NCBI GenBank assembly: GCA_046540795.1
Contig: JBKHEN010000002.1
Location: forward strand, 1 to 41,789
Direction: 5' to 3'
Source: Spirochaetaceae bacterium
Lineage (GTDB): Bacteria > Spirochaetota > Spirochaetia > DSM-27196 > PWMO01
DNA length: 41,789 nucleotides
Below are positions 15,491-38,357 of the stretch, one piece after another; the stretch's first letter is position 1; every line of letters begins with the position of its first letter. The notes under the pieces were generated by a model, which did no database searches, was not told the origin of the DNA, and worked only from the letters and a program-made list of their open reading frames with translations. The position numbers and the translations under genes were made by a program.

Positions 15491-16315
15491 ATGGGGCCGA
15501 ACCTGAAATCAAGCGGATACTTCGCCGGCACGGCTTTTCTCATCGCGGGCCTCACGGGCGCTCTCGCTGGTGTCGGTCTCGGCGTCATTTTCCTACGCGC
15601 ACTCCTCGGCGCGTTCGTGTTCGGCGGCTTCGGATACCTAGCTTTTCTCGTCATCTCTCGGCGAATTCCTGAGCTTCTCACTACAACCGACGGGTCGGCA
15701 TCCGCACTGGCAGGGTCCCCTCCGGAGACGGGCGGGCACGTGGACATCGTCGTGGACGACGAAGATGAAGAGGCGCAGCCGGTGGAGGAAGTGCGGACAC
15801 CGGACTCCGCAATCGATATCGGCACCTCCAGCGTCGATGCTCCCGCCACCGGTCCTTCCGCCGCGGAAGCCGGCGGCGATGAGGACGCGGCCACCCTCGA
15901 AGAGCTCGGTGACGAGGAAGAGGAGACGCCGTCGGAAGGGCCGCCTCGGCCCGTGGAGGAGCTGGTGGAAGAGGTGACGGAGGTCGGCGACAGCGGCCGC
16001 CCCGGCACCAGCGGGGGGGGCACCGGCCGCGGTACCGGCACCGGCGGCGGCACCGGTGACTCCCGTGGGGCGGGCGGGGAGCCCGCACCCAATCCCCCGG
16101 CTGCCTCGGCGGCCGATGAGGTCGATGACGACTCCCTCGATTCTCTTCCTGATATCGGCGGTTTCGCCGGAAGCTTTGAGGGGGAGGGCTCCGAAACCAC
16201 AGAGGAAGAAGAGGTCACGGGTGGCGCCGGCAAGAGAGACGGCGGGCATGGGGTCGACCAGGACCCTGAGGTCATCGCAAAGGCACTCCAAACGGTGATG
16301 AAACGGGATGAGTAA
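15491..16315 (+). CDS. Hypothetical membrane protein (2 N-terminal TM helices + long acidic/Gly-rich disordered region), translationally coupled to fliA
   Basis: AGGGGAG RBS 8 nt upstream of the ATG. N-terminal '[25 protein letters not shown]' and '[16 protein letters not shown]' are hydrophobic. The rest is Asp/Glu/Gly/Thr-rich. The stop overlaps the fliA start by 8 nt. I recognise no family motif. Confidence 0.55.
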
Positions 16316-17120
16316 GAGCAAGAAGCAGGCAGATCAGGAAACGCTCCTCGCCGAGAAGTCCGAAGAGGAGTTGTGGCGGCTCTACAAAGACACCGGCGAC
16401 CCGGAGATACGTGACAGGATCGTCAGGCAATACGCTCCGTTGGTGAAGTACGTCGCCGGCAAGGTTGCAGTGGGGATGCCCCATAACGTGGAGTTCGACG
16501 ACCTCGTCGGCTACGGGGTATTCGGACTGTTCGACGCTATAGAGAAGTTCGATCCCCAGAAGCATGTGAAGTTCAAGACCTACGCGGTTACGCGCATTCG
16601 GGGTGCGATATTCGATGAGTTGCGCTCGATCGACTGGGTGCCCCGATCGATCCGGCAAAAGGCCCGGGAGATCGAAGATACCGTGCAGAAGCTGGAGAGT
16701 TCCCTCGGGCGGGCCGCCACCGACGAAGAAGTTGCCCGAGAGCTCGGTATCACTACCAAGGAGTACGAAAAGACCATTCAGAAGGTCAGCAGCACCTCTA
16801 TCTTGTCCCTGAACGATGTCTGGTATACCGGCGAGGACAACGATAAGGTCTCCATCGCCGACAGTATCGAATCGCCCCAGAGCCTCAACCCGGACGTGAT
16901 CGTTGAAAAGGACGAGATAAAGCGGGTCATTGCCGAGTCCATAAAGGAGCTCCCGGAAAAGGAGAAGAAGGTCCTCGTGCTGTACTACTACGAGGATCTC
17001 ACACTGAAGGAAATCGGCCAGGTTCTCGAGGTAACGGAATCCCGGGTGTCACAGTTGCATACGAAGGCCATTATGAGGCTCCGTACCAAGCTGACCAACA
17101 TCAAGAAGGGGATCATGTAG
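16308..17120 (+). CDS. fliA: Flagellar RNA polymerase sigma factor sigma-28 (FliA/WhiG/SigD)
   Basis: Sigma-70 family regions 2-4 are present: '[12 protein letters not shown]', '[19 protein letters not shown]...[18 protein letters not shown]' and the region 4.2 HTH '[29 protein letters not shown]'. It sits at the end of a flagellar operon. Confidence 0.93.
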
Positions 17121-17122
17121 CC

Positions 17123-19069
17123 ATGGTTCGGATATCGGAGATTCAAGGCTACATGCAGAAGCAGATGGAGGAGGATCGCCGACGGAACTACGTGAACGTT
17201 CAGGGAGATACGCTGGACGAAGCGCTCGAGCAGGCTGCGGTCGAGCTTTCCCGGCCGGTTAAGAACATCGATTTCGAGATACTGCAGAAGGGCAGCCGAG
17301 GAATATTCGGTGCCGGCCGGAAACCTTATCTGCTCCTTGCCTACCCGGCGACGGGTGAGTCGAAAGAACAGGACATGGACGACGTCTTCGATGTGGACTT
17401 CGGCTTCGAAGAGGAAGCTCAGCAGGTCGAGCGAGACGGAGAGGCCTTCGTGAGGCTTTCCTCCACGGGTATCCTGCTGAAAGTTACGCCGCCGGTTGGA
17501 AAGGGAAAAAGAGTCACCGAGCAACAGGCGATGGAGCGTATTCGGGCGCGTACCGACGCCAGACTCGACACAGGCAACGTTGCCAAGGCGGTGAAGCTTG
17601 CGGAAGGTGAGTTCAGAAAGGTCGGCGACTACGACTATAACCCCGCAGCGGACGCAGTGCTGTCGGTAGAAATTGCGGATTCGGAGATGAGAGCCTACCT
17701 TACCGCCCTCCCTCCCGGCCCCGGTGGTGCGGACCCGGATTACGACAGCCTGGTGACGTTCTTGCAGGACAACGGCGTTGTCTCCGGCTGGAAAGAGAAC
17801 GTGCTTAGCCGCTTCGCCGATGACCCGGTATACCGGGAGCCGGTGCTCGTCGCCGAGGGGACATCGCCGAAGGACGGGGGCGATGCCCGTATCGCGTATA
17901 ATTTCGAGACCGACGGTAGCCGCGTGAGGCTTAAGGAGCAGGACGGCAGGGTAGACTTCAAGGAGCTCGACATTATCCAGAATGTGGTTGAGGGGCAGGT
18001 ACTTGCCAAAAAGATACCGGCTGAGCGGGGCACGCCGGGGCGAACGGTCACCGGGAAGCTGCTGCCGGCCAAAGACGGAAAGGACACGCCCTTACTCGTC
18101 GGCAAGAACGTCAGGCTGTCGGAGGACAAACGCACGGCGATCGCGGAGCTCAACGGGCAGGTGTTTCTCCACAACGGAAAGATACAGGTGGAGGAGGTCT
18201 ACGTCGTCAACGGCGATGTGAATCTCAAGACGGGGAATATCACTTTTCTCGGCGGCGTGGTCGTAAAGGGCAACGTAGACGACGGTTTCAACGTAAAGGC
18301 ATCCGGAAATATCGAGGTAGCCGGTAGTGTAGGAAAGAGCCTGCTCGACGCCGAAGGCGACATTATCGTGCGACAGGGCGTGGCGGGCAAAGAGACCGGT
18401 ATCATACGTTGCGGCGGGAACCTGTGGTCCAAGTTCGTGGAGAATGTCACCGTAGAAGCCGGCGGCATGGTCATCGTGACCGACGGGATCATGAACTCGG
18501 AGATCTATGCCAACCGTAAGGTCATCTGCCGGGGCAAGCGGGCAAGTATTGTGGGAGGGCGCGTGCGTGCGGCGGAAGAAATCGACGCCAAGGCCCTCGG
18601 CACTCCCGGTGGGCGTGAGACCATTCTCGAGGTGGGGTACGATCCCAAGAGCAAACAGAAGCTCGTTGAGCTCAAGGAGAAGCGCGATGAATACAACGGG
18701 GAGCTCGACGGGATAAAACGTGATCTGAAGACGCTCATAAACCAGAGCAAGCAGAAGAAGGAAATTCCTAAGGAAAAGGTGCAGCAGTTCAAGAAGTTGC
18801 AGGCCCGCCGGAAGGAACTTGCCGAGGAGATAGAGCGGCTGGACACCGAAATCGGGGAGCTCGAGTCCTATCTGGAGGGCCTCAAGGTTTCCGGCAAGGT
18901 TGGTGCCTCCGGAACGGTGTATCCGGGAGTCAAGCTCTATGTGAAGGACGCGTATCTCGATGTGCACAACGAGTTCAACGCGGTTACCTTCAGCGCGGTG
19001 GCACAGCAGATAAAGGTCGGGAAGTACGAGGAATCAAGCGAGAATATCGAGATGATCCGGAAGGATTAG
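17123..19069 (+). CDS. DUF342/FapA-family flagellar-associated protein with a Jag_N-like N-terminal domain
   Basis: The N-terminal 'VNVQGDTLDEALEQAAVELSRPVKNIDFEILQKGSRGIFGAGRKPYLLLAYP' resembles the Jag N-terminal domain. The central beta-helix-like repeats ('GNITFLGGVVVKGNVDDGFNVKASGNIEVAGSV...'), a C-terminal coiled coil and 'GTVYPGVKLYVKDAYLDV' are typical of DUF342. Confidence 0.8.
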   Translation: MVRISEIQGYMQKQMEEDRRRNYVNVQGDTLDEALEQAAVELSRPVKNIDFEILQKGSRGIFGAGRKPYLLLAYPATGESKEQDMDDVFDVDFGFEEEAQQVERDGEAFVRLSSTGILLKVTPPVGKGKRVTEQQAMERIRARTDARLDTGNVAKAVKLAEGEFRKVGDYDYNPAADAVLSVEIADSEMRAYLTALPPGPGGADPDYDSLVTFLQDNGVVSGWKENVLSRFADDPVYREPVLVAEGTSPKDGGDARIAYNFETDGSRVRLKEQDGRVDFKELDIIQNVVEGQVLAKKIPAERGTPGRTVTGKLLPAKDGKDTPLLVGKNVRLSEDKRTAIAELNGQVFLHNGKIQVEEVYVVNGDVNLKTGNITFLGGVVVKGNVDDGFNVKASGNIEVAGSVGKSLLDAEGDIIVRQGVAGKETGIIRCGGNLWSKFVENVTVEAGGMVIVTDGIMNSEIYANRKVICRGKRASIVGGRVRAAEEIDAKALGTPGGRETILEVGYDPKSKQKLVELKEKRDEYNGELDGIKRDLKTLINQSKQKKEIPKEKVQQFKKLQARRKELAEEIERLDTEIGELESYLEGLKVSGKVGASGTVYPGVKLYVKDAYLDVHNEFNAVTFSAVAQQIKVGKYEESSENIEMIRKD

Positions 19070-19393
19070 ATGGCGATTCAACCCATCGACCTTCAAACGC
19101 TTATTCTCAGACTGGACAACGTGGGCAAGGAAGAGTCCGCCGCAAGGCAGGCTGCGGCGCAGAGTCAGTCCGTCGCCGGGAGTGAGATCGCCAGGCGTAG
19201 CGTAGAGCAACAGCGGGCGGTAAGTGAGACCAGAATCCTCGAAGACGGTGCCGAGCAAGTCCACGACGATGAGAGCGGTGAAGGCGCCGAAGGCGGACAC
19301 GAACAGGAGCGGCGCAAGGGGAAAACTCCGGGCGACGAAGACGGGGTTTTCCGGGATCCCGACCTTGGGCAGAACGTCGACATATCCGGATAA
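19070..19393 (+). CDS. Hypothetical small acidic protein (107 aa)
   Basis: The ATG abuts the DUF342 stop, with a GGAAGGA RBS. No recognisable motif. It lies on the same strand as a tightly packed operon. Confidence 0.45.
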   Translation: MAIQPIDLQTLILRLDNVGKEESAARQAAAQSQSVAGSEIARRSVEQQRAVSETRILEDGAEQVHDDESGEGAEGGHEQERRKGKTPGDEDGVFRDPDLGQNVDISG

Positions 19394-19399
19394 GGATGT

Positions 19400-19999
19400 A
19401 TGCATCCGATCGTTGTCGTGCTTCTGAACATCGGGCTCGCCGCCGTGGTATATATTCTCATTGTCCGTCGAGTAGACCGGCGTATGCGGCCGGAGCGGAT
19501 TGTCGGGGAGCTGCGTGGAGAGATCGAGAGCATCATCGTGGAGTTGAATCAGACGACCGACCGCAACATTGATCTGATAGAAGACCGGGTAAACCGCCTC
19601 AACGGCTTGCTTCAGCAAGCCGACAAACGCCTTGCGGTGTTGAAGCGGGAGTTCGAAACCCGGAGCACCGGAAGCGTCGGATATAACGACATCTTGCGCC
19701 GGAGTGCGCACGGTGTACAGAATGTGCAGGGTGTCGCCCCCTCGCGGGAACCGGCCCCTGAACAGTCGACGGAAGCCGGCGGAGGGCCCGACAACGCCTC
19801 ACAGCGGCAGGAAGGGGGTGCGGCCGGCGTCAGTACCGACGGCGAGAGCGCCGCCCCGGAGGGCGGTCGAGAAGCCAGACGGAAGAAGATCCTCGACCTC
19901 CACAGGAAAGGCATTGCGGCAAACATCATTGCCAATCGGACGGGTACGACGGTAGGGGAAGTCGAGCTCATCATTTCTCTTGCCGAGAGGAAGAAGTAG
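19400..19999 (+). CDS. Hypothetical membrane-anchored coiled-coil protein with C-terminal HTH-like segment
   Basis: N-terminal TM 'IVVVLLNIGLAAVVYILIV', coiled-coil 'RLNGLLQQADKRLAVLKREFE', a disordered linker and a C-terminal 'ILDLHRKGIAANIIANRTGTTVGEVELIISLAERK' that resembles a sigma region-4/LuxR-type HTH. This architecture is reminiscent of DUF2802-type flagellar-cluster proteins (from memory). Confidence 0.55.
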   Translation: MHPIVVVLLNIGLAAVVYILIVRRVDRRMRPERIVGELRGEIESIIVELNQTTDRNIDLIEDRVNRLNGLLQQADKRLAVLKREFETRSTGSVGYNDILRRSAHGVQNVQGVAPSREPAPEQSTEAGGGPDNASQRQEGGAAGVSTDGESAAPEGGREARRKKILDLHRKGIAANIIANRTGTTVGEVELIISLAERKK

Positions 20000-20000
20000 C

Positions 20001-21683
20001 ATGGGACGTGTCATCGGTATCGACCTTGGCACAACGAACTCGGTTGCCGCGTTCGTGGACGGGGGAGAGCCGCGGATTATCCCCAATGACCGCGGCGCAC
20101 ACCTGACCCCGTCGGTGTGCAGCTTCTGCGAAAACGGAGATATCCTCGTCGGCGAGTCCGCTCGCAACCAGGCGATCGTGGCCGCGGAACGCACCGTGAT
20201 ACACGTCAAACGGCGTATGGGGAAGACGGAGACCATCGACATAGGGGACGCCCGCTACAGCCCGCCGGAAATCGCCGCGTTCATTCTCGGGCACATCAAG
20301 TCGTACGCCGAGCAGTATCTGGGCGAGTCGGTGGACGGAGCCGTCATCACCGTGCCGGCGCGGTTTTCCGAGGCGGCGCGTCGGGCTACGCGGCAGGCGG
20401 GTGAACGAGCCGGCCTGTCGGTGCATCGGATTCTCAACGAGCCCACCGCCGCGGCTCTGGCATATGCACGGCGAGACGCCGTGACTCGACGGATACTCGT
20501 ATATGACTTCGGCGGAGGGACCTTCGACGTTACCTGTCTACTCCAGGAGGGAACTGAGTTTACCGTGCAATCGACCCGAGGCAACGAGTACCTCGGCGGG
20601 CTCGATTTCGACCTCCGACTCGAACGTATCGTCGCCAAGAGCTTCGAACGGGACTACGGTCTTTCGGTGACCACGGACCCGGGGCTCCTTCAGCAGATTC
20701 GAGAGCTCGCGGAGCGGGCAAAGATAGAACTTTCCTCCCGCGAGACGGCGATGGTGGCGCTGCCGTTCATCGCCGGCGGCGGAAAGCCGATGCACCTCCG
20801 TCGCAGTGTAACCCGGGCGGAGCTCAACGAGCTGATCGGGGAACAGGTAGAGCAGAGCATTTCCCTTACCAAGGAGGCGCTTACGGACGCGGGCTTCGAG
20901 GTTTCGACCCTGGACAATCTGGTTCTCGCCGGGGGCTCGACACGGATTCCGCTGGTGCGGGCCCGCTTGGCCGAAGAACTGGGACTCGAGGCAACCTCAC
21001 TCGTGAATCCCGACGAAATTGTCGCTCTCGGTGCGGCCGTGCAGGCACATATGGTCGAGACGAAGAAGCCGGTTTTCCGCCTCACCGACGTCAATTCGCA
21101 GCCCCTCGGGGTGGAGATCGACGAAGATCGTTATGTGACGCTCTTGGAACGCAATACACGACTCCCGGCCGAGGTGAAGCGCGTGTTCACTACGGTGAGC
21201 GACAATCAACGCTCGGTGGAGATCAACGTTCTCCAGGGGGATGCCGAACGTGCGTCGAAGAACCGCTCCCTCGGAAAGTTCATGCTCAGCGGCATCCGAA
21301 CGGGGCGTCGCGGAGAGCCGAAGATCGAGGTGGGGTTTGAAATGGACGCGGACGGGATCGTACACGTCTCCGCCCGAGACGTGGATACCGGGGCGGTGCA
21401 GCGCATAACGGTCACCGCCTCCCCGGGAGACGAGAATCTCGACGATCCACGGCTCACGGAGCAGCGTGTTCGGGAGCTGACCGAGCATATCGCCGAGCTC
21501 ACGGGGCGGGAGAACCTCTACATTGACGAGGAGTTTCGAGGGGAAGTGAAAGAGCTGCTCGATCACGTGCGCCGAAACCGGAATCCGGCAAAGCTCCGGG
21601 AGTATCGGGTTGCCCTGGAGGCCGTGCTCGTCGAGTTGGGCACCATCTTTGAGGACATGGAGGTGAGCAACGAAGGTGCGTGA
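20001..21683 (+). CDS. Atypical Hsp70-family chaperone (HscC-like paralogue of DnaK), 560 aa
   Basis: Nucleotide-binding-domain motifs '[10 protein letters not shown]', 'ITVPARFS', 'ILNEPTAAALAY', 'DFGGGTFDVT' and 'LAGGSTRIP' are present, and the beta-sandwich SBD looks intact. The interdomain linker is 'FRLTDV' rather than DnaK's 'VLLLDV', and the helical lid is short and divergent. ATG 20001 (RBS GAGAGGAAGAAG) is preferred over the listed 19980 start. Confidence 0.9.
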   Translation: MGRVIGIDLGTTNSVAAFVDGGEPRIIPNDRGAHLTPSVCSFCENGDILVGESARNQAIVAAERTVIHVKRRMGKTETIDIGDARYSPPEIAAFILGHIKSYAEQYLGESVDGAVITVPARFSEAARRATRQAGERAGLSVHRILNEPTAAALAYARRDAVTRRILVYDFGGGTFDVTCLLQEGTEFTVQSTRGNEYLGGLDFDLRLERIVAKSFERDYGLSVTTDPGLLQQIRELAERAKIELSSRETAMVALPFIAGGGKPMHLRRSVTRAELNELIGEQVEQSISLTKEALTDAGFEVSTLDNLVLAGGSTRIPLVRARLAEELGLEATSLVNPDEIVALGAAVQAHMVETKKPVFRLTDVNSQPLGVEIDEDRYVTLLERNTRLPAEVKRVFTTVSDNQRSVEINVLQGDAERASKNRSLGKFMLSGIRTGRRGEPKIEVGFEMDADGIVHVSARDVDTGAVQRITVTASPGDENLDDPRLTEQRVRELTEHIAELTGRENLYIDEEFRGEVKELLDHVRRNRNPAKLREYRVALEAVLVELGTIFEDMEVSNEGA

Positions 21684-22272
21684 GCTATATCGCGTACTCG
21701 AAGTGGAGCCGGGGGCGGACTTCGAGACCGTTCGAGCGTCCTATCGGCGGCTTCTCAAACGGTATCATCCGGATTCCGGGGGCGCAACGGCGGACCCGGG
21801 GCGTCTCGATTCGGTGCTCGAGGCTTTTCGTCGCCTCTCCCGGTCTTATGACGTCTCTTTTGGACCGCGACGACATTCCTCCGGTGAGCAGCCGCAGAGC
21901 GTGTTCGATCTCGGACAGACCCTGGCGTCGGCGGAGAGCGTGACGACCCGAACCTTTGCCGCACGAAGCCTCGGTAATCTCGGAAAACGCAGCGCATATC
22001 CGTATCTCAGGACCGGGCTCGAAGATCCGGATCAACGGGTCGTGATCGCTTCGTTGCGAGCAATCGGGCGCCTACGGGTAACGCATGCGGTGGGCGATCT
22101 GTCGGCCCTCTTCCATGGTGCGGAGGCGGAAGTGCGACGGGTTGTCATGGAAACGGTCGGGGAAATCGGACGGCTGTCGGTGTTTCGGAACCTGCTGCTG
22201 GCGGGGCTGGAAGATGCCGACCCGGCGGTCCGGCGGCGGGCGTTGCGATTGTACGTGCGCCTCGAACGATAA
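21676..22272 (+). CDS. J-domain protein fused to HEAT (PBS-lyase-type) repeats
   Basis: J-domain 'LYRVLEVEPGADFETVRASYRRLLKRYHPDSG' with an intact HPD (21766-21774). The C-terminal 'ARSLGNLGKRSAYPYLRTGLEDPDQRVVIASLRAIGRL...LLAGLEDADPAVRRRAL' forms HEAT-like repeats. The GTG start overlaps the Hsp70 stop by 8 nt. Confidence 0.8.
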   Translation: MRELYRVLEVEPGADFETVRASYRRLLKRYHPDSGGATADPGRLDSVLEAFRRLSRSYDVSFGPRRHSSGEQPQSVFDLGQTLASAESVTTRTFAARSLGNLGKRSAYPYLRTGLEDPDQRVVIASLRAIGRLRVTHAVGDLSALFHGAEAEVRRVVMETVGEIGRLSVFRNLLLAGLEDADPAVRRRALRLYVRLER

Positions 22273-22303
22273 AGACGCGGAACGGGAAGAGGTTGTTGAG
22301 AAC

Positions 22304-24139
22304 GTGAGTAGCAAGCAGGCTGATCCGGAAATCTTTCACCTCTTCAGACAGGACGGGCGTCGGTATCTGGCGCTCCTGCGCCGGACGCTCCAAGAGGCCG
22401 GTGGACGGCATCTCGGCCCCGAAGAGCGACGGAAGGCGTTACGATACGCACATTCGGTGAAGTCCGAGGCGGCGTTTCTGGGCTACGACGCCGTCGCCGG
22501 GACGGCTCACCGGATCGAGGACCAACTCTCGGGGAGTTCGAGGGTCGATACTTCCTCCCTTCTCGTTGTTCTCGGGGAGCTGGAAGCCGCCTTCGACGAA
22601 GCCCTCGAGCGGGTGCAGGAAGGGGCACCCGATCTCGCCCGGGAGTCCGAGGAAGAGGAGCCGGCGGAGGAGTTGCTGGTGCGGCAGATGGGCCCCCGGG
22701 AACGTGATCGTCTCGTGGAGGCCCGCAAGCGGGGAGAGCGGCTGTTCGTTTTGGAGTGCACGCTTACCGAGCACACGCAGATGTTGGCTCCCCGGCGCTT
22801 CCTGCTGGTCAGTAATCTCGAGCAGGCCGTCAACCTGGTGGTCGGCTTTCCGGAGGTGCAGGCGGAGCGTCCGATCCGGCGCTTTGTTGCGTTACTGACC
22901 ACCGACGGAGACCGGTCGGAAATCGAGGCGGCGGTCGACGTCGACCTGGTACGGTTGCTTCGACTCGAGGAAATCGACTACGACGGGTTGCTCAGACGCA
23001 AGGACGAGACCGTGGTCTCGGGGATGATTGCCGGATCGCGGGAAGTCCAGGTGACCATGTCCGTTCGTTCCTACGAGGAGCTGTGTCTCTACGCCGGCGA
23101 GCTGCATCGGCAGCTTGAGCAGCTACGCGGTCTCCTCGGGCCGGAGGAGACGGATGCGCAGACGCAGGCAATGTTGCACACCGCCGGGCGACTTGCGGAA
23201 GCCGTAGACGATACGGTAGCGCGAACATCGATGGTTACCTTGGCTCACGTATTCTCCGCGATAGAGTCTCACGCTCGCAACCTGGCGGAATTCTTGGACA
23301 AATCGGTGCGAGTCATCACCTCCGGCGCCGAGCACGAGGTATTCCTGCCGGTTGCCGAGGTGTTGAGGAACGCGTTGCTACACCTCGTGCGCAATGCCAT
23401 GGACCACGGCGTGGAGCCGCCGGACGAACGGAAGGCGGCGGGAAAAGATCCGACGGCGACCGTGCGTGTTTCGGCCGGGGTGCGTGGGGATAGCCTGGTC
23501 ATTCGGGTGTCGGACGACGGTCGCGGTATACCCGAGGAGTTTTACGGCATCGGAAACGGCGGGCACGGAGAGGACCGGGGAGGCGATGCAGGCCTGTGGG
23601 AAGCCGTCTCTCGCTCGGGGGTGAGTACCCGGCGGCAGGCGGATCAACTCTCCGGTCGGGGCGTGGGGCTCGACGTAGTGCGCACGCAGGTGGAACGGTA
23701 CATCGGTGGTGCAGTTGCTCTGGACTCCGGGAGGGGCACCGGGACGACGGTGGAGATTCATCTGCCCCGGGCCGGGCGGCTACTGAGCATTCTGGTGGCC
23801 CGGCACGGCCGCATGGAGTTCGCGCTTCCGTCCGCCCATGTGTACGCCGTATTCGACCTCGAGGGCCGTTATGCATCGCGTGACCACTCGGGGAACCTGT
23901 TCTATCGCTATCATGGAGAGGCAATACGGCTCTATGCGGTGGAGCTCTCCGCGGTACCGACCAGCGTAGACGGGCTACGGGGGATCCTCCTGCGGATCGG
24001 GCGCCGGCGCGCCGTCGTACTTGCCGAGGAGATCGTTTCGCAGGAAACCGTGATACGGAGCAAGGATCATCCCGAGCGCGTGTTCTCCCAGGTTTTGAAC
24101 CGGAATGTGGGGCTGGTCTTTCCGGTGCAGTTTCTCTGA
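22304..24139 (+). CDS. CheA-like histidine kinase (HPt - atypical linker - dimerisation - HATPase_c - CheW-like)
   Basis: HPt 'ALRYAH(50)SVKSEAAFLGYDAVAGTAHRIEDQL'; N-box 'LLHLVRNAMDHGVE'; G1 'DDGRGIP'; G2 'SGRGVGLDVV'; C-terminal CheW-like 'LLSILVARHGRMEFALPSAHVYAVFD...'. GTG 22304 (RBS GGGAAGAGG) is preferred. The listed 22085 start would overlap the J-protein gene by 188 nt. Confidence 0.85.
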   Translation: MSSKQADPEIFHLFRQDGRRYLALLRRTLQEAGGRHLGPEERRKALRYAHSVKSEAAFLGYDAVAGTAHRIEDQLSGSSRVDTSSLLVVLGELEAAFDEALERVQEGAPDLARESEEEEPAEELLVRQMGPRERDRLVEARKRGERLFVLECTLTEHTQMLAPRRFLLVSNLEQAVNLVVGFPEVQAERPIRRFVALLTTDGDRSEIEAAVDVDLVRLLRLEEIDYDGLLRRKDETVVSGMIAGSREVQVTMSVRSYEELCLYAGELHRQLEQLRGLLGPEETDAQTQAMLHTAGRLAEAVDDTVARTSMVTLAHVFSAIESHARNLAEFLDKSVRVITSGAEHEVFLPVAEVLRNALLHLVRNAMDHGVEPPDERKAAGKDPTATVRVSAGVRGDSLVIRVSDDGRGIPEEFYGIGNGGHGEDRGGDAGLWEAVSRSGVSTRRQADQLSGRGVGLDVVRTQVERYIGGAVALDSGRGTGTTVEIHLPRAGRLLSILVARHGRMEFALPSAHVYAVFDLEGRYASRDHSGNLFYRYHGEAIRLYAVELSAVPTSVDGLRGILLRIGRRRAVVLAEEIVSQETVIRSKDHPERVFSQVLNRNVGLVFPVQFL

Positions 24140-24156
24140 ACCGGTTCCAGCCGAGC

Positions 24157-24185
24157 TTGACTACGCACAGAGCGCTGATTACTTT
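24157..24185 (+). promoter_or_regulatory. Possible sigma-70-type promoter of grpE-dnaK-dnaJ
   Basis: TTGACT (24157-24162), 17-nt spacer, TACTTT (24180-24185), about 30 nt upstream of the grpE ATG. I see no CIRCE inverted repeat in this gap. Confidence 0.3.
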
Positions 24186-24215
24186 TCCAGCAAAGCCACA
24201 AAGCACGAGGTAAGT

Positions 24216-24989
24216 ATGTCCGGCGAAGAACGCAGATTCGACGATAGAGCTACAGACAAGGAACGCACGCAAGCCGATCAGGCAGCGGAACAATACGCAG
24301 CGGAGCAATACGCGCAGAACGCCGGCGGGGACGGTGCCCCGGAAGACACGGGTAACCGTTCCTCGGAATCAGCGGTTCCCGGCAATGCAGGGGGTGATGC
24401 CCCGGCCGCTGAGGAGGGGGCTTCGGCGCAAGCGGCGGAGGATGCTCAGGACGAGGTTGGTCGCCTTCTTGCCCGGGTCCAGGAGCTCGAACAGGAGAAC
24501 AGCGACCTGAAAGACCAGTACCTACGCAAGCAGGCCGATTTCGAGAACTTTCGCAAACGCATGGCTCGCGAGAAGGCGGACGCCATCGCATATGCCAACA
24601 AGCAGTTGCTCCTCGATTTGGTAACGATCATCGACGATTTCGAGCGGGCTATCAAGTCGGCAGAGGAGTCGCGGGATTTCGATTCCTTCCATGAAGGCGT
24701 GGCGCTGATCGAAAAGCAATTCACCAATATGCTCGAGAGCAAATGGGGTCTGAAACGCTTCGATTCCGAAGGACAGGAGTTCGACCCGCAGAAGCACGAA
24801 GCGCTCATGAGTGAGGAAGCGTCGGATGTTGATCACCCTGTGGTCGTGGAGGATTTTCAGAAAGGCTACTTTCTGAACGACAAGGTGCTTCGGTCGGCAA
24901 AGGTCAAGGTGGCCGTGCCGGCGGAGAGCAACGAGGGTGCCGGGACGGAGGAGAACGTCGGCGGCGGCGGCGACGGTGCGGAATCCTAG
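24216..24989 (+). CDS. grpE: Nucleotide exchange factor GrpE
   Basis: 'LKDQYLRKQADFENFRKRMAREK' and the C-terminal beta-domain 'FDPQKHEALM...GYFLNDKVLRSAKVKV' are present. ATG 24216 with a GAGG RBS. The N-terminal ~80 aa is low complexity. Confidence 0.93.
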   Translation: MSGEERRFDDRATDKERTQADQAAEQYAAEQYAQNAGGDGAPEDTGNRSSESAVPGNAGGDAPAAEEGASAQAAEDAQDEVGRLLARVQELEQENSDLKDQYLRKQADFENFRKRMAREKADAIAYANKQLLLDLVTIIDDFERAIKSAEESRDFDSFHEGVALIEKQFTNMLESKWGLKRFDSEGQEFDPQKHEALMSEEASDVDHPVVVEDFQKGYFLNDKVLRSAKVKVAVPAESNEGAGTEENVGGGGDGAES

Positions 24990-25070
24990 GAGCCGGGCCC
25001 AAAGTAGTGGACGCCACAGATCGAACTTCGTATGTTAGGCGGGCAGTGCCGCCATGAGAGGAGCAATTGA

Positions 25071-27002
<1,932 letters not shown>

Positions 27003-27036
27003 CGGCAAACACTCAAGCGAGATCGGATACGAGGCT

Positions 27037-28173
27037 TTGGCTAAAAGAGATTACTACGAAGTGCTCGGGCTCCAGCGGGGAGCTTCAAAAGAAGACATCA
27101 AAAAGGCGTACCGCAAGGTTGCCGTTGCGAATCACCCCGACAGGAATCCGGGGGACAAGCAGGCGGAAGAGCGGTTCAAGGAGGCCACCGAAGCGTACGA
27201 AGTCCTTGCGGATGATCAGAAGCGCCAGGCGTATGACCAGTTCGGCTTTGCCGGCGTGGAAGGAATGGGCGCTCAGGGCGGCTATTCCCACGCGTTCCAC
27301 GACTTCGAGGACATCTTCGGCGGGTTCTCCGACATCTTCGAGAGCATCTTCGGCGGAGGTTTCGGCGCGGGCTTCGGGGGTACCCGCGGTAGGCGCGGCA
27401 GCAGGGTTCGGGCCGGTGCCGACCTCCGCTATGACATGGAGATCAGCTTCGAAGAGGCCGTCTTCGGTGCAAAGAAGGAGGTCACGTACAAGCGCCATGT
27501 CCACTGCGATCGGTGTAACGGCACCGGCGCGGAAGGCGGCGGTGGCAGAAAAACCTGTCCCACCTGTGGTGGCGTCGGTCAGGTGCGGCGCAGCCAGGGG
27601 TTCTTTTCCATCGCAAGTACGTGTCCGACCTGTGGCGGAGAAGGTCAGGTCATAGAGAACCCCTGCAGCAAATGCGACGGTACGGGGCTTCTCAAGAAAG
27701 AGCGGACCGTAAAGGTCACCATCCCCCCGGGTATCGATAGCGGTAAACGGATCAGCTTGCGGGGCGAAGGAGACGCCGGGCCGAACGGCGGACCCGCCGG
27801 GGACCTCTATGTAGTCGTGCGTGTACGTCCGCACGAGTATTTCGAGCGGCAGGGACATGATCTCTACTGCATGATTCCCATCTCCCTTACCCAGGCCGCC
27901 TTGGGCGCGGAAGTCCAGGTGCCGACCCTGGACGGCAAGCGGGTGAAGCTGGGCATACCTGCAGGCACCCAGAACGAGAAACTTTTTCGGCTGAAGAATC
28001 TGGGCGTCCCGCACCTCAGAGATTCCTCCAAGCGCGGAGATCTCTACGTCAAGATCCACATCGAAGTGCCCCGCAAACTCTCCGGGAAGGCGAAAAAGCT
28101 TCTACGGGAGCTCTCGGAGGCCCAGGGGGAAAACGACACCCCGGATCCCGTTCCCCTCTCTCGGCTGAAGTAA
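27037..28173 (+). CDS. dnaJ: Co-chaperone DnaJ (type I)
   Basis: J-domain with HPD, a Gly/Phe-rich region and four CxxCxGxG zinc-finger motifs (CDRCNGTG, CPTCGGVG, CPTCGGEG, CSKCDGTG). TTG start. Confidence 0.97.
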   Translation: MAKRDYYEVLGLQRGASKEDIKKAYRKVAVANHPDRNPGDKQAEERFKEATEAYEVLADDQKRQAYDQFGFAGVEGMGAQGGYSHAFHDFEDIFGGFSDIFESIFGGGFGAGFGGTRGRRGSRVRAGADLRYDMEISFEEAVFGAKKEVTYKRHVHCDRCNGTGAEGGGGRKTCPTCGGVGQVRRSQGFFSIASTCPTCGGEGQVIENPCSKCDGTGLLKKERTVKVTIPPGIDSGKRISLRGEGDAGPNGGPAGDLYVVVRVRPHEYFERQGHDLYCMIPISLTQAALGAEVQVPTLDGKRVKLGIPAGTQNEKLFRLKNLGVPHLRDSSKRGDLYVKIHIEVPRKLSGKAKKLLRELSEAQGENDTPDPVPLSRLK

Positions 28174-30550: not shown

Positions 30551-31597
30551 TTGTCAGGAAGTTCCGATAGTACCCAAGCAGAGACGACAACGCATTCGCC
30601 CTTGTCGAAGCTTGCTCGCCGTCTGGGTCGGGCAGTTAAACGCGTATTGGTCGGCTTTGTCAGGCTCGGCAAACAGCGTTTCACCGTGATGCTCATACCG
30701 CATTCGGAGAAACGCGTCGTGAATTTCCAGATCAACACCTTCGCGATTGCGTTCATCGGCATATTGATCATCGGCGTTCTCGTCGGATTCTTCTATCTCT
30801 CGACCATGTTTTCGGGCTCCTCGCGTCTCATCTCGCAACGTTCACAGGAGTTGGAAAGCACGGAAGCCAGCTTGGAGGCTGTGCGGGAAGAGGTTGCCGA
30901 GGTTTCCAAGGCCGGCGAGGTTTTCGGCAGTCAGCTCACCGATACCCTGCGGTCGTTAGACCTGAGCTCGGAGGATGCGCTTTCGTCGGAAGACGGCGGC
31001 ACCGGGGACCTCTCGTCCTTTCTCGACGTCCAGGAGGTGGAACCGGGGGAAATACGGGAGCTGCAGGAACTGAGAGGCCTTGCCGGTATGCTCGAGGCCT
31101 CCGTACGACCGTTGGAAGACATTCGGGACGTGCTGGATTCGCAGAAGGAGCTCCTTGCGGATCTGCCGCACCACTGGCCCGTCGCCTCCGGGCTCGGTCG
31201 AGTGACTATGGAGTTCGGACCGAACATCCATCCGGTGACCAGTCAGTGGTACTTGCATAAGGGTTTCGACATTGCCGGAACCCCAGGGACCCCCGTGATT
31301 GCCAGCGCCAACGGCAAGGTTGTGGAGCTGGGTGTGGACCCGGGCTACGGTCTGTACGTGTGGGTGCGGCACAAATATGGCTTCCGCACGCGGTATTCGC
31401 ATCTCCAGACGGTCGATGTTGCCGAAGGGGATGAGGTCTATCAGGGCCAACGGGTCGGCCGTCTCGGGGACAGTGGCATATCTACGGGCCCGCACCTGGA
31501 TTTTCAGATTTGGCTTGGGACGGACGTGGTGGATCCCTCCGCATTCCTGAAAATTTCGAGCGAATTCAAGCGGTGGTCCCGAGATCGCATTCACTGA
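30551..31597 (+). CDS. M23 (LytM-type) family peptidase, membrane-anchored, with coiled-coil linker
   Basis: N-terminal TM 'FAIAFIGILIIGVLVGFFYL'. C-terminal M23 domain 'YLHKGFDIAGTPGTPVIASANGKVV...YSHLQT...GDSGISTGPHLDFQIW'. GGAGG RBS 8 nt before TTG 30551. The start is uncertain. Confidence 0.88.
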   Translation: MSGSSDSTQAETTTHSPLSKLARRLGRAVKRVLVGFVRLGKQRFTVMLIPHSEKRVVNFQINTFAIAFIGILIIGVLVGFFYLSTMFSGSSRLISQRSQELESTEASLEAVREEVAEVSKAGEVFGSQLTDTLRSLDLSSEDALSSEDGGTGDLSSFLDVQEVEPGEIRELQELRGLAGMLEASVRPLEDIRDVLDSQKELLADLPHHWPVASGLGRVTMEFGPNIHPVTSQWYLHKGFDIAGTPGTPVIASANGKVVELGVDPGYGLYVWVRHKYGFRTRYSHLQTVDVAEGDEVYQGQRVGRLGDSGISTGPHLDFQIWLGTDVVDPSAFLKISSEFKRWSRDRIH

Positions 31598-31613
31598 CGG
31601 GTAAGTTCGACGC

Positions 31614-32078
31614 ATGGGCTACAACTCGGAAGATTCCTTTATCAACTCGATAGTCGGCGAAGGCACTCATTTTCGGGGCCATTTGGAGTTGGCGGGTCTC
31701 CTGCGCATCGACGGGGATTTTACAGGCTCCATCAAGACCAAGGGTAAGGTTCTTGTCGGGAAAGATGGTCGCGCGGACTGCAATATCGAGGCCGGGACGG
31801 TAGTTGTCGGGGGCGTTGTCCGGGGGACTATTGCATCGACGGAAAAGGTCATTGTGCTGGCCTCCGGTATGGTTATTGGTGACATATATGCGGCCCGGCT
31901 GGTCGTCGAGGAAGGTGTTATCATCGACGGAACGCTATCGATCCGCGGAGATGGGGCAGAGCCGCGGGGAGAGCGGTTTTCGCCGCGCCGTGCCTACGGA
32001 ACGGTCGGACCGCTTCGATATCCGGCTCGAGCCCCCGCGGCGCGACCGGCGCGCTCCGCAACATTCGGCGTCGAATAG
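31614..32078 (+). CDS. Bactofilin (DUF583 polymer-forming cytoskeletal protein), copy 1
   Basis: Beta-helix repeat pattern 'IVGEGTHFRGHLELAGLLRIDGDFTGSIKTKGKVLVGKDGRADCNIEAGTVVVGGVVRGTIASTEKVIVLASGMVIGDIYAARLVVEEGVIIDGTLS' with a Pro/Arg-rich C-terminal tail. Confidence 0.88.
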   Translation: MGYNSEDSFINSIVGEGTHFRGHLELAGLLRIDGDFTGSIKTKGKVLVGKDGRADCNIEAGTVVVGGVVRGTIASTEKVIVLASGMVIGDIYAARLVVEEGVIIDGTLSIRGDGAEPRGERFSPRRAYGTVGPLRYPARAPAARPARSATFGVE

Positions 32079-32089
32079 AGGCGACGACT

Positions 32090-32593
32090 ATGGCGGCAAT
32101 GAAACGTATCGAGAACGACGGCTTCTTCTCGTTTCGCCGGCAGGCACGCGAGGCCCGAACCGGTGCCGGCAAAGCCGCCGAAGCGCCGGAGTTCGGGACG
32201 ATTCTCCGTCGGGAAGCGGAGGATTCATCGGCCGCCTCCGGGGTCTCGGAGACGAGTACCTCCCCGCCGAGCCCGGAGGAAATCGAGCATCTGCTCGACT
32301 CCGTTCACCGGCTCGGTGACGAGCTGATGCACAAGCGCACCTTCAGCGCCGTACAGCGCTACCGGGAGGCGGTCAAGGCGTTCGTTCGCCGGGTGGTGTC
32401 GAACTCCCTCGACGTGGAGGTCCATACCTCCGGCGCAAGCGTGCTGAGTCGCAAGAGGTTCTCCCTCGTGCAGATCATCGATCAGAAGCTCGATCGCTTG
32501 GTCGGCGGGATGTTGCAGAGTCAGGAGCCGCAAATGGAGCTCATGAGCAGGGTCGAGGAGATCCACGGGCTACTCGTCGATCTCTCCCATTAG
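32090..32593 (+). CDS. DUF327 (YaaR-like) family protein
   Basis: The C-terminal pattern 'AVQRYREAVKAFVRRVV...RKRFSLVQIIDQKLDRLVGGML...LMSRVEEIHGLLVDL' matches the B. subtilis YaaR family as I remember it. It lies next to a PSP1/YaaT gene, as in Firmicutes. Confidence 0.75.
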   Translation: MAAMKRIENDGFFSFRRQAREARTGAGKAAEAPEFGTILRREAEDSSAASGVSETSTSPPSPEEIEHLLDSVHRLGDELMHKRTFSAVQRYREAVKAFVRRVVSNSLDVEVHTSGASVLSRKRFSLVQIIDQKLDRLVGGMLQSQEPQMELMSRVEEIHGLLVDLSH

Positions 32594-32607
32594 AGGAAAG
32601 GTAGAGT

Positions 32608-33618
32608 ATGAGCAATAATCTCCCGGGAGTGCCGGCTGCTTCGCCTCCGGCATACGCAGGCTGCGGCATCTGCGATTCAATACCGGCGGGTACGCCGTTC
32701 ATCGTCAAAGTGCTTCACTCCAGTGAGACGGAGCTGTGTCGTATCGGCGACGAGGAGGATATCGGAGAGGTGCGCTGTGGGAATCTGGTGGTCGTCATGA
32801 CCCGTTACGGGGGCGACCTTGCCCGGGTTCTCGGCCCCGTGCGTCCCGAGAACGTCGGGGCATGGGAGCACGAGCGCACTATTCAGCGTATCGCCACCGA
32901 AAGTGACATCGCCCGTTACGAGCAGAATCTGGAGAAGGAAGAGCGCGCGGTGGATATTTGCCGCAACAAGATCGGGAAGCACGGGCTCGACATGAAGCTC
33001 GTGTCGGCCCACTACGTGCTCGAGGAGCCGAAGATCCTCTTCTTCTTTACGGCGGAGTCACGGGTGGATTTTCGTGACCTGGTGAAGGACCTGGTCGCCG
33101 AGTTTCGAATGCGTATCGAGTTGCGTCAGATCGGCGTGCGAGACGACTCCCGGGTGCTGGGGGGCACCGGCGTCTGCGGACGGGTATTCTGCTGTCACGG
33201 CCTTACGAACAAGCTGAAACCCGTGTCGATCAAGATGGCCAAGGTGCAGAATCTCAGTCTCAACTCCATGAAAATATCCGGACCATGCGGGCGCCTGTTG
33301 TGCTGCCTGGCGTACGAATACGAGCACTACACCGAGCAGAAGGACAAGCTCCCCTCCGACGGTACACGAATACGATTCGACGGCAGCACGTTTCAGGTGT
33401 GTGAGGTAAACGTCATTTCAAACGAGGTACGAATGTTCGCCCGCGAGGACGGCCGCTATGTGACCGTCGCCGGTGACCGGTTCAAATACTACTCGCGCGA
33501 GAGACGGTGGGCCGTCGACGAAGAGAGCGTGACGGAGGATCGCGAGGCGGGTATGGAGCGCGCCGTGGACAGGGAAATGGTGGACACGGAAGAACAGTAC
33601 CCGCGGAACGGGGAATGA
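32608..33618 (+). CDS. PSP1 C-terminal domain protein (YaaT/RicT-like)
   Basis: 'KILFFFTAESRVDFRDLVKDLVAEFRMRIELRQIGVRDDSRVLGGTGVCGRVFCCHGL...KISGPCGRLLCCLAYEYEHY' is the conserved PSP1 core, including the two Cys clusters. Confidence 0.9.
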   Translation: MSNNLPGVPAASPPAYAGCGICDSIPAGTPFIVKVLHSSETELCRIGDEEDIGEVRCGNLVVVMTRYGGDLARVLGPVRPENVGAWEHERTIQRIATESDIARYEQNLEKEERAVDICRNKIGKHGLDMKLVSAHYVLEEPKILFFFTAESRVDFRDLVKDLVAEFRMRIELRQIGVRDDSRVLGGTGVCGRVFCCHGLTNKLKPVSIKMAKVQNLSLNSMKISGPCGRLLCCLAYEYEHYTEQKDKLPSDGTRIRFDGSTFQVCEVNVISNEVRMFAREDGRYVTVAGDRFKYYSRERRWAVDEESVTEDREAGMERAVDREMVDTEEQYPRNGE

Positions 33619-37602: not shown

Positions 37603-37863
37603 TTGGTAATAAAGGGATCTGCAGCCAAGCGCCATCGACAGGCGCGTAAGCGGCGTATGCGCAACCGTGTCTCGCGGAGCCGGGTGCGCACCGAGATTCG
37701 GAAGTTTCTTGCCGCCGTAGAGAACAAGAACAAAGCGGAGGCGGAGGATCGGTTTCACACGGCCGCCAAGCTTGTGGATACCGCCGCCGGCAAGGGCGTT
37801 TATCACAAGAATACCGCAGCCCGAACAAAATCTCGTCTTCAGAAGAAGCTCAACGAACTCTAG
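37603..37863 (+). CDS. rpsT: 30S ribosomal protein S20
   Basis: 'AAKRHRQARKRRMRNRVSRSRVRTEIRKF...AAKLVDTAAGKGVYHKNTAARTKSRLQKKL' is typical of S20. AAGGAG RBS 6 nt before the TTG start. Confidence 0.93.
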   Translation: MVIKGSAAKRHRQARKRRMRNRVSRSRVRTEIRKFLAAVENKNKAEAEDRFHTAAKLVDTAAGKGVYHKNTAARTKSRLQKKLNEL

Positions 37864-37910
37864 GTGAGCTCCGGCTGCGCAAAGCTGCCGTCTTCCATCG
37901 AGGAGCGCAC

Positions 37911-38213
37911 GTGGCAAAGGACAAGCTTACCAAAGCGGAAATCGTCGACAACATCGCCGAGACGACCGACGTCAGCAAGAAGGAAATCCAGCGAATCATC
38001 GATTCCTTCTTCTCTCAGGTCAAGTCTGCCCTGCTCGAGGACCGGGTGGTAGAATTTCGGGGATTCGGTACGTTCGAGATTCGTACCCGTAAGGGGCGCG
38101 AGAAAGCCCGCAATCCCAAGACCGGTGAGACGGTCAGTGTACAGAACCACGGCGTGGTGGTTTTCCGCCCCGGCAAGGAGCTGAAAGACGCCTCGTGGTC
38201 GCTTCGGAGCTGA
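37911..38213 (+). CDS. hup: HU/IHF-family DNA-binding protein
   Basis: 'LTKAEIVDNIAETTDVSKKEIQRIIDSFFSQVKSALLEDRVVEFRGFGTFEIRTRKGREKARNPKTGETVSVQNHGVVVFRPGKELK' shows the full HU/IHF fold signature. Confidence 0.93.
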   Translation: MAKDKLTKAEIVDNIAETTDVSKKEIQRIIDSFFSQVKSALLEDRVVEFRGFGTFEIRTRKGREKARNPKTGETVSVQNHGVVVFRPGKELKDASWSLRS

Positions 38214-38309
38214 CCCCCCCCTACGATCGGCACTGCCTGCGGCGGGCGGACCGTGAAACGTAGCGGACCGAGCGGTCAGACGGAGTCCGGCAAGGGCGTA
38301 GACAATTGA

Positions 38310-38338
38310 TTGACAGGTCTCGGGGGTTCTGAGACAAT
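38310..38338 (+). promoter_or_regulatory. Sigma-70-type promoter of the receiver-TPR-bactofilin-cinA operon, flanked by an 8-bp direct repeat
   Basis: TTGACA (38310-38315), 17 nt, GACAAT (38333-38338). AGACAATT occurs at 38300-38307 and again at 38332-38339. Confidence 0.4.
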
Positions 38339-38357
38339 TACTCGAAGGTGCTTCCAA

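Follow-up and report, generated by a model that had tools for sequence, protein, structure and literature searches.

An Hsp70, a J-domain/HEAT-repeat protein and a CheA-type kinase encoded together at the tail of a spirochaete flagellar superoperon

Borrelia carries at the end of its flagellar operon an Hsp70 gene that has been known from annotation for decades and whose product, to our knowledge, has never been characterised. In B. burgdorferi this gene, bb0264 ('dnaK-1'), is the last of the 31-gene flgB superoperon and is co-transcribed within bb0272-bb0264 (PMC11607428), and transposon mutants of BB0264 show reduced infectivity in mice (PMC3485029). By coordinates BB0264 has 491 amino acids (aa); its gene shares 29 nt with BB0265, and beyond it lie lepB-3, on the opposite strand, and an M23 peptidase gene (PMC3485029, supplement). 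A flagellar sub-module composed of sigma-28, FapA, YjfB and a protein with a transmembrane (TM) segment and a helix-turn-helix (HTH) has also been defined (PMC11607428). Here we analysed a 41,789-nt stretch of DNA, referred to throughout as the window (Spirochaetaceae bacterium, contig JBKHEN010000002.1 of assembly GCA_046540795.1, positions 1 to 41,789), in which the end of the flagellar superoperon is followed by three adjoining genes at 20001-24139. These encode an Hsp70 (Hsp70L), a protein joining a J domain to HEAT repeats (J/HEAT) and a CheA-type kinase. In a database search, the closest public proteins to those of the window were Spirochaetaceae metagenome-assembled genome (MAG) entries, at 97-99% identity.

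In Mycoplasma, the J-protein TopJ is required for the motility organelle. The Che7 pathway of Myxococcus xanthus reportedly includes a PBS-lyase-type HEAT-repeat protein, Cpc7, which is encoded beside a CheA-type kinase and bound by CheY7. In Escherichia coli, DnaK, DnaJ and GrpE are needed for flagella, and CheA is a predicted client of HtpG (Hsp90) (PMC8082187). The specialised Hsp70 subfamily HscC is marked by an insertion in its beta substrate-binding domain (SBD-beta) (PMC8215388). A first-pass annotation of the window, made from its sequence alone, had proposed that the trio is a module of a composition not previously described, and in the literature searched we likewise found no such system, nor any paper tying an Hsp70/J pair to CheA in spirochaetes; large surveys of J-proteins do not single out a J+HEAT architecture. 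Our tentative reading is that the trio forms a lineage-specific end to the flagellar superoperon of spirochaetes, quite possibly one in which a dedicated chaperone pair has the adjacent kinase as its main client.

The trio and its recurrence in spirochaete loci

The three genes lie on the plus strand, with Hsp70L at 20001-21683 (Pfam HSP70), J/HEAT at 21676-22272 (Pfam DnaJ and HEAT_2) and the kinase at 22304-24139 (Pfam Hpt and HATPase_c, phmmer, and AlphaFold2 (AF2) with Foldseek). Their tight packing had been described before, and each of the junctions proved exact. The Hsp70L ATG at 20001 follows the stop of the preceding TM/HTH gene at 19999 after a gap of 1 nt. The GTG of the J-protein at 21676 overlaps the Hsp70L TGA (21681-21683) by 8 nt and has a Shine-Dalgarno sequence, GGAGGTGA, about 10 nt on its 5' side, and the kinase GTG at 22304 stands 31 nt beyond the J gene stop at 22272, with a Shine-Dalgarno sequence of its own, GGGAAGAGG. 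The gene context in the first-pass annotation was incomplete, as it made no mention of the canonical grpE (24216-24989, probable start 24216), dnaK (25071-27002) and dnaJ (27037-28173) genes directly downstream. These are co-directional with the trio on the plus strand and begin 76 nt past the kinase (spacer 24140-24215 by sequence inspection). Pfam identified them by GrpE, by HSP70 at 925 bits and by DnaJ, DnaJ_C and CXXCXGXG, and the DnaK scored 1057 bits against the NCBIfam DnaK cut-off of 648.

The regulatory scans gave few signals in this region. No intergenic intrinsic terminator was found from Hsp70L to dnaJ, the only matches in that range (21803 and 22540) lying inside coding sequence, and the total of the terminator scan was near shuffle expectation. 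The sigma-70 promoter scan returned nothing upstream of the trio, no CIRCE element or Rfam family was found, and both spacers were free of inverted repeats. A weak sigma-70-like TTGACT-N17-TACTTT can be read by eye in the 76-nt spacer, with no tool matching it. The trio is likely to be co-transcribed with the flagellar genes, and transcriptional read-through into grpE is possible. A sigma-28-like pattern, TAAAG-N14-GCCGATAA with up to 3 mismatches, had 15 matches in the window against 5.7 expected, a count that no shuffle reached; none of them stands in front of 20001, 22304 or 24216, and most fall inside coding regions.

Gene neighbourhoods were fetched through three entry points (kinase, J/HEAT and Hsp70L) and cross-checked by tblastn. 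The order FapA, small protein, TM/HTH protein, Hsp70L, J/HEAT and orphan kinase, as we call the kinase type without che genes beside it, is kept in 11 distinct spirochaete loci (the window, L001, L003, L005, L006, L008, L009, L016, L019, L020 and L021), with kinase identity going down to 29%. The first-pass annotation had allowed for an adjacency confined to one genome; the trio is instead present in many diverged genomes, and chance adjacency is therefore excluded. The genes downstream of the trio vary among the 11 loci (PP2C, DAGK, MptE, SDR, GATase). Eight of ten lineages show an overlap of 8-29 nt between Hsp70L and the J gene, and six show one of 4-23 nt between the J and kinase genes. 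When loci were fetched through Hsp70L alone, J/HEAT adjoined it in 6 of 6, and next to the pair stood an orphan kinase (4 of 6), a full che set (1 of 6) or a convergent cheW (1 of 6), so that every chaperone pair in the sample abuts a che gene. In two lineages distant from each other the grpE-dnaK-dnaJ genes adjoin the cassette, though not at the same end (downstream of the kinase at 24216-28173 in the window, upstream of fapA at 2057-5918 in L005), and are not adjacent to it in the other nine loci.

The chaperone pair

Hsp70L has 560 aa and matches Pfam HSP70 with 477 bits (E 9e-143). It had been described as having a complete nucleotide-binding domain (NBD), a complete SBD-beta and a short lid, and this description held. 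Its ATPase motifs are intact (DLGTTNS, the K70-equivalent, NEPTAAA, DxGGGTFD and GGxTRIP), the SBD-beta is intact and well conserved, and, compared with DnaK, about 80 aa are missing from the helical lid. The linker reads FRLTDV, compared with VLLLDV in DnaK and VILTDI in HscC, and its hydrophobic character is weakened. The arch residues over the substrate pocket are altered (Met to Asp/Glu, Ala to Val), a change common to the full-length Hsp70L orthologues aligned. The NBD is without the 24-aa insert that both the window DnaK and E. coli DnaK have; Bacillota DnaKs among the DnaK-type database matches of Hsp70L are also without it. The C-terminal tail (N/Y)EGA, encoded at 21669-21680 in the window, is conserved in most Hsp70L orthologues and is reminiscent of EEVD, the docking tail of eukaryotic Hsp70s; by that analogy it may serve to dock the HEAT domain or another partner.

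The earlier description of Hsp70L as HscC-like stood for its architecture and failed for its ancestry. Hsp70L shares with HscC the short lid, the altered L-T-D linker and a neighbouring J gene overlapping its stop, a resemblance of architecture only. In sequence it is 44% identical to E. coli DnaK (408 bits) and 46% identical to the window DnaK, with DnaKs in the range of 400-408 bits, compared with 31% and 227 bits for E. coli HscC. In the L1,2 loop, E. coli HscC carries an extra 'NRQG' where Hsp70L aligns to DnaK free of gaps. Kinship to HscC was thus rejected on the identities, the missing SBD-beta insertion and the neighbour-joining (NJ) trees. Identity with DnaK proper was rejected as well: the best NCBIfam model is DnaK (PRK00290), but the score of Hsp70L, 535 bits, falls short of the 648-bit cut-off and the match spans residues 1-476 only, its lid is short and it falls outside the DnaK clade. 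A database search returned about 50 clusters of Hsp70L orthologues (553-576 aa, 47-70% identical) ranked before the true DnaKs. In the NJ tree the Hsp70L group is monophyletic in 96 of 100 replicates and the true DnaKs of spirochaetes, E. coli and Bacillota form the other clade in 99 of 100. On these sequence comparisons Hsp70L is a distinct and apparently DnaK-derived Hsp70 subfamily, HscC-like in architecture alone. As it is without the NBD insert yet stands outside all DnaKs in the tree, its origin may be either an ancient paralogue or a transfer. Another Hsp70, P0191 (585 aa, 44% identical, on a 5.3-kb contig), also has no NBD insert and is intermediate in length; it groups with the true DnaKs and not with the Hsp70L clade.

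One of the 11 loci carries a reduced form. The Hsp70L gene of L005 (8871-9434) has only 187 codons and aligns to window residues 365-471, which correspond to the SBD-beta and the short lid, with no ATPase domain. It is an intact open reading frame (ORF) overlapping its neighbours, and the adjoining J/HEAT protein still has its HPD motif. This variant hints that the J domain can use housekeeping DnaK and that the substrate-binding part would be the indispensable piece of Hsp70L. A metagenome scan seeded with the L005 protein returned ordinary DnaK loci only and no relatives of the variant.

The J/HEAT protein has 198 aa and consists of a J domain, a disordered linker and four PBS-type HEAT repeats. 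The J domain scores 36.7 bits with Pfam DnaJ (cut-off 27.8), and the repeats score 51.4 bits with HEAT_2 (cut-off 27.7) and 20.3 with HEAT_PBS (cut-off 20.9). The HPD motif (H31, P32, D33) is invariant in two alignments, of 11 and of 16 orthologues, and Pfam found neither DnaJ_C nor a zinc finger. In the AF2 model the mean predicted local distance difference test (pLDDT) value is 84 and exceeds 95 over the HEAT solenoid (residues 76-197), and its nearest PDB folds by Foldseek are the PBS-HEAT-derived alphaRep proteins and CpcE/F, with a probability of 1.0. These data bear out the HPD motif and PBS-type HEAT repeats of the first-pass annotation, and the HPD loop, together with the lack of a G/F region and of DnaJ_C, classes the protein by its sequence as a class-C J-domain protein. 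The J domain also weakly matches the NCBIfam TopJ model. An exact-peptide scan of genome contigs gave five close Spirochaetaceae MAG loci and unrelated J-proteins and nothing else, a word-indexed search gave close relatives only, and a profile search gave about 65 small J/HEAT representatives, named at most 'Spirochaetales MAG'.

Taken as a dedicated chaperone with a class-C J adaptor built into the flagellar superoperon, the pair could work as follows. The HEAT solenoid would hold a specific folded partner, the HPD-bearing J domain would fire ATP hydrolysis in Hsp70L, and Hsp70L would clamp part of the held protein under its short lid, in a pocket whose altered arch residues may reflect a changed specificity. 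The pair would then be a client-specific chaperone for the polar motility and chemosensory machinery.

The kinase and the alternative states of the operon tail

The kinase has 611 aa. Pfam detected Hpt (38 bits), HATPase_c (61.7 bits) and a weak P2 only, and did not detect the H-kinase_dim and CheW domains; P3 and P5 are too divergent for it. By phmmer, residues 291-597 align to P3-P4-P5 of Thermotoga maritima CheA (1b3q, E 1e-37). The AF2 model comprises a P1 bundle, a P2 alpha/beta domain, a P3 helical hairpin (254-307), P4 and a P5 beta domain (492-604) that is divergent and shortened; its best Foldseek match is CheA-289 (1b3q, E 3e-26), and P4 reaches TM-scores of 0.75-0.83 to CheA P4. The four domain types that the first-pass annotation had listed, HPt, dimerisation, HATPase and CheW-like, are thus all present, the dimerisation and CheW-like domains (P3 and P5) at the level of the fold. 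The phospho-accepting His50 (AHSxKS) is invariant in one alignment of orthologues (A3) and nearly so in another (A5). In P4, H360, R363, N364, H368, D404, D405, G406, G408, S450-G455 and D457 are invariant, and the N box, G1 (DDGxG) and G2 (SGRGVGxDVV) are invariant across orthologues down to 29% identity. With His50 and the ATP-binding boxes (N, G1, G2) kept, the kinase should be catalytically competent. Among the window ORFs scanned with Pfam there is no gene for CheW, CheY, CheB, CheR or a methyl-accepting chemotaxis protein (MCP), in agreement with the earlier statement that none is adjacent, and the only receiver domain, at 38310-39110, is 14 kb from the kinase. Nor does a CheW, MCP or CheY gene follow the kinase in the 11 orphan-type loci.

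Related loci hold other states of the same tail. After the TM/HTH gene, L023 and L024 carry cheW, a full cheA and cheY with no chaperones; L017 carries Hsp70L and J/HEAT followed by cheW, a full cheA, cheY and cheB; L018 carries Hsp70L and J/HEAT and then a convergent cheW, with no kinase; and L025 carries a basal orphan-type kinase directly after TM/HTH, with no chaperones. MptE-like, PBP and LysM/M23 genes lie downstream alike in L023, L017, L016 and L005, which argues that these are states of one ancestral locus. From the alternative states it follows that the invariant anchor is the flagellar tail (sigma-28, FapA, the small protein and TM/HTH) and not the kinase. To this anchor two accessory units are added, the chaperone pair and the Che kinase, which mostly but not invariably occur together. 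The trio proposed earlier as a module is accordingly recurrent and loosely bound, but it is not obligate, as L017, L018, L023, L025 and Borrelia illustrate. By position only, Hsp70L is the counterpart of B. burgdorferi BB0264. The downstream M23 peptidase recurs in distant loci and so, in L005 and L019, does a signal peptidase S26, as BB0262 and BB0263 do beside BB0264; the presence of these genes downstream of the cassette and in Borrelia suggests old synteny.

These states bring forward an explanation that we consider somewhat unlikely, in which pair and kinase have no interplay at all. Hsp70L, with or without J/HEAT, would serve FapA, the TM/HTH protein, sigma-28 control or flagellar export, and the kinase would act independently with partners encoded elsewhere, the two being neighbours by sharing the superoperon end. 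FapA, the small protein and TM/HTH indeed precede Hsp70L in every locus, and the Borrelia Hsp70 gene stands directly after that of BB0265 with neither J/HEAT nor kinase. The pair without kinase in L018, the kinase without pair in L025 and the che genes without pair in L023 also fit such an independence, and the kinase keeps P2, the CheY-docking domain, which implies an ordinary response-regulator partner elsewhere. On the other hand, J/HEAT adjoins a che gene in all lineages sampled, and the orphan kinase has lost its cheW and cheY neighbours, has remodelled P3 and P5 and is almost always found with the pair, L025 being the sole exception. J/HEAT and the kinase also diverge similarly fast (34-37% and 31-35% identity), compared with about 80% for FliA.

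The kinase scores below the curated CheA models (146 against 950 bits for NCBIfam CheA_Halo, 111 against 793 for PRK10547), and orphan-type kinases form a monophyletic long-branch clade (100/100) apart from ordinary CheAs in the NJ tree. P2 is normally the least conserved domain of CheA. Here its identity between orphans and the tail CheAs (L017 and P0025) is 0.29, about as high as among orphans (0.31), with 0.19 both between orphans and canonical CheAs and within canonical CheAs. In the same order, the values are 0.13, 0.24, 0.13 and 0.29 for P3 and 0.16, 0.27, 0.16 and 0.29 for P5. The phosphotransfer half has therefore been kept, and the coupling half (P3 and P5, for dimerisation and CheW/receptor coupling) remodelled. 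Given its synteny and its P2 similarity, the best reading of the kinase is that it diverged from a CheA of the flagellar operon and did not arise de novo as an 'orphan'.

That exactly P3 and P5 have diverged, with P1, P2 and P4 kept, would suit a chaperone-gated kinase, an explanation we regard as unlikely. J/HEAT would load Hsp70L on the degenerate dimerisation/P5 region and keep the kinase inactive or monomeric; titration of the chaperones by unassembled flagellar subunits or proteotoxic stress would free it, and the pair would replace CheW and the receptors. Such a switch would be analogous to DnaK/DnaJ-sigma32 or BiP/ERdj4-IRE1, Hsp70 control of native regulators being an established mode (PMC8215388). 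In its favour, cheW is gone from the locus in the orphan lineages and present in L017 and L023, and grpE-dnaK-dnaJ abuts the cassette in two lineages (the window and L005). The idea is purely inferential, however, and has to contend with a kinase without the pair in L025, a pair with a normal CheA and CheW in L017 and an Hsp70L without ATPase domain in L005; no response regulator or output has come to light for it. Its boldest form, in which the CheA-derived kinase has swapped its receptor/CheW input for the Hsp70 and J/HEAT pair, so that unassembled flagellar or unfolded protein load gates the phosphorelay directly, appears to us quite unlikely.

The L017 tail, with J/HEAT directly before cheW-cheA-cheY-cheB, is compatible with the reverse flow of information, which we consider very unlikely. 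The kinase would phosphorylate a CheY encoded elsewhere, and CheY~P would bind the HEAT repeats, recruit or release the J domain and thereby switch the action of Hsp70L on a flagellar assembly factor. This would agree with the PBS-lyase type of the HEAT repeats, the class to which Cpc7 is said to belong, and with the P2 domain kept in orphan kinases. In none of the 11 loci does a CheY gene adjoin the trio, however, and the Che7 analogy, drawn in the first-pass annotation, sets Cpc7 beside J/HEAT by repeat class, not by sequence.

We return to the reading of a dedicated chaperone pair with the adjacent kinase as its main client, against which several points weigh. The L018 tail has the pair with no kinase, that of L025 a basal orphan-type kinase with no chaperones, and that of Borrelia, by annotation, the Hsp70 (BB0264) alone (PMC3485029, supplement). 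In L005, where the HPD is kept beside an Hsp70L without ATPase domain, the J domain, judged by these sequences, must use another Hsp70. Stop and start codons overlap frequently throughout the superoperon, so such overlaps are not specific evidence for the trio. In the NJ tree the orphan kinases had 0/100 support as sister to the tail CheAs (L017), and all related loci come from uncultured organisms, named isolates having been sought among the Hsp70L orthologues and none found. The data show which genes are present, that their domains and motifs are intact, that the synteny recurs and that the locus has alternative states; contact between pair and kinase, physical or functional, is something we infer, and so is any account of who binds whom among the trio or of an effect on kinase activity. 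Under the client reading, the kinase would descend from the cheW-cheA-cheY set that fills the same slot in the sister lineages L017 and L023. It would have retained its phosphotransfer parts (the P1 His, P2 and P4) while P3 and P5, for dimerisation and CheW/receptor coupling, were remodelled, and in the lineage of the window the pair would assist in its folding, assembly or polar placement.

The flagellar superoperon of the window and known systems

Nearly all genes up to 29.8 kb of the window lie on the plus strand and together make up the flagellar superoperon (Pfam). Its early part runs in the order fliK-like, flgD, flgE, motA, motB, fliL, fliM, fliY/N, fliO and fliP, and its later part in the order fliR, flhB, flhA, flhF and flhG, with FlhF detected as SRP54 and FlhG as ParA-like. 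These are followed, also on the plus strand, by a membrane protein gene at 15491-16315, fliA (sigma-28) at 16308-17120 (Pfam Sigma70_r2, r3 and r4), a FapA gene at 17123-19069 (Jag_N, FapA_N and the FapA beta-solenoid, Pfam E 9e-76), a gene for a small 107-aa protein at 19070-19393 and, at 19400-19999, the gene for the TM, coiled-coil and C-terminal HTH protein (weak Pfam DUF6115 and DUF2802). The order flhF-flhG-flgV-fliA-fapA-small-TM/HTH fits the described sub-module (PMC11607428), on Pfam evidence and, for FlgV and the small protein, by position. The small protein, in the 'YjfB-like' position, has no Pfam match. Likewise, the membrane protein corresponds by position only to bb0268/flgV (PMC11607428) and has no match in Pfam or NCBIfam; its N-terminal TM segments are followed by about 200 residues of acidic, Gly-Thr-rich low-complexity sequence. 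The loci that reach so far have an unannotated gene of similar size (212-279 aa) between flhG and fliA, of which the ends alone can be aligned, the middle being poorly conserved. Across the related loci fliA is 74-92% identical, FapA and the TM/HTH protein are always present, and the small protein is kept in all at 30-72% identity.

Downstream of the cassette, the window holds genes for an M23/LysM peptidase, bactofilin, DUF327 and PSP1 (30551-33618). The receiver domain mentioned above (E 7e-28) belongs to a 266-aa response regulator (38310-39110, plus strand) whose C-terminal half has no assignment; an ORF of 322 aa with no Pfam match (37860-38828, minus strand) overlaps it in antisense.

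The individual parts of the system are already known: Hsp70, class-C J-proteins, PBS-type HEAT repeats, CheA and the flagellar superoperon tail. What is undescribed in the literature searched is an Hsp70L subfamily outside DnaK, HscA and HscC, a fused J+HEAT partner, and their recurrent pairing with a CheA that lacks its receptor-coupling context. Should the pair service or control the kinase, this would be the first case in which a dedicated Hsp70/J system is linked to a chemosensory kinase, Hsp70L would bring the bacterial Hsp70 types to four, after DnaK, HscA and HscC, and the unstudied Borrelia 'dnaK-1' would gain a function. If the kinase were chaperone-gated, it would provide a bacterial counterpart of BiP/ERdj4-IRE1 or DnaK-sigma32 control acting on a chemosensory kinase. 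The sequence from a full che set, through a che set with chaperones, to an orphan kinase with chaperones offers a natural series for a CheA losing its receptor coupling. Were there no interplay, a useful annotation would still result, that of a conserved spirochaete flagellar superoperon tail with a distinct Hsp70 subfamily.

Among known systems, the Borrelia locus shares with the window an extra Hsp70 gene at the very end of a spirochaete flagellar superoperon, placed after FapA (bb0267) and two small genes and overlapping the preceding gene (PMC11607428; PMC3485029, supplement). As in L005, L016 and L019, signal peptidase S26 and M23 peptidase genes lie downstream. Unlike the window, it has neither J/HEAT nor kinase after the Hsp70, lepB-3 coming next on the other strand, it has no sigma-28, and its Hsp70 is shorter (491 aa) and orthologous by position alone.

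E. coli HscC resembles Hsp70L in being a specialised Hsp70 of much the same length (556 aa, Hsp70L 560 aa) whose lid is short, whose NBD is without the 24-aa insert and whose linker contains L-T-D; the genes of its dedicated J-proteins, DjlB and DjlC, lie beside hscC. At that locus (L096, E. coli K-12 676000-688000) djlB and djlC are each paired with a DUF1266 gene and with a gene for an alpha-solenoid (Sel1-repeat) protein, YbeQ or YbeT, so that the combination of Hsp70, J-protein and alpha-solenoid exists there as separate proteins. Hsp70L differs in having no SBD-beta insertion and in branching with DnaK in the NJ trees, and the trio differs in that J domain and solenoid are fused in one protein and stand in a flagellar/che context.

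Canonical CheA (of the B. subtilis fla/che type, and in L017 and L023) has the P1-P5 order, phospho-His motif and intact ATP-binding boxes of the kinase, and shares its slot in the flagellar-operon tail, where sister lineages hold cheW-cheA-cheY. In contrast, the kinase has no CheW, CheY, CheB, CheR or MCP gene adjacent, its P3 and P5 are missed by Pfam, and it belongs to a separate long-branch clade. From the M. xanthus Che7 cluster, as that is reported, the trio differs in that its HEAT protein carries a J domain and is paired with an Hsp70, no CheY is in the cluster, and the setting is a flagellar operon. Finally, the general chaperone dependence of motility resembles the trio in that motility and chemosensory machines depend on chaperones for their construction; those cases, however, involve housekeeping chaperones or unrelated J-proteins, whereas the pair described here is dedicated, paralogous and a fixed part of the flagellar operon.

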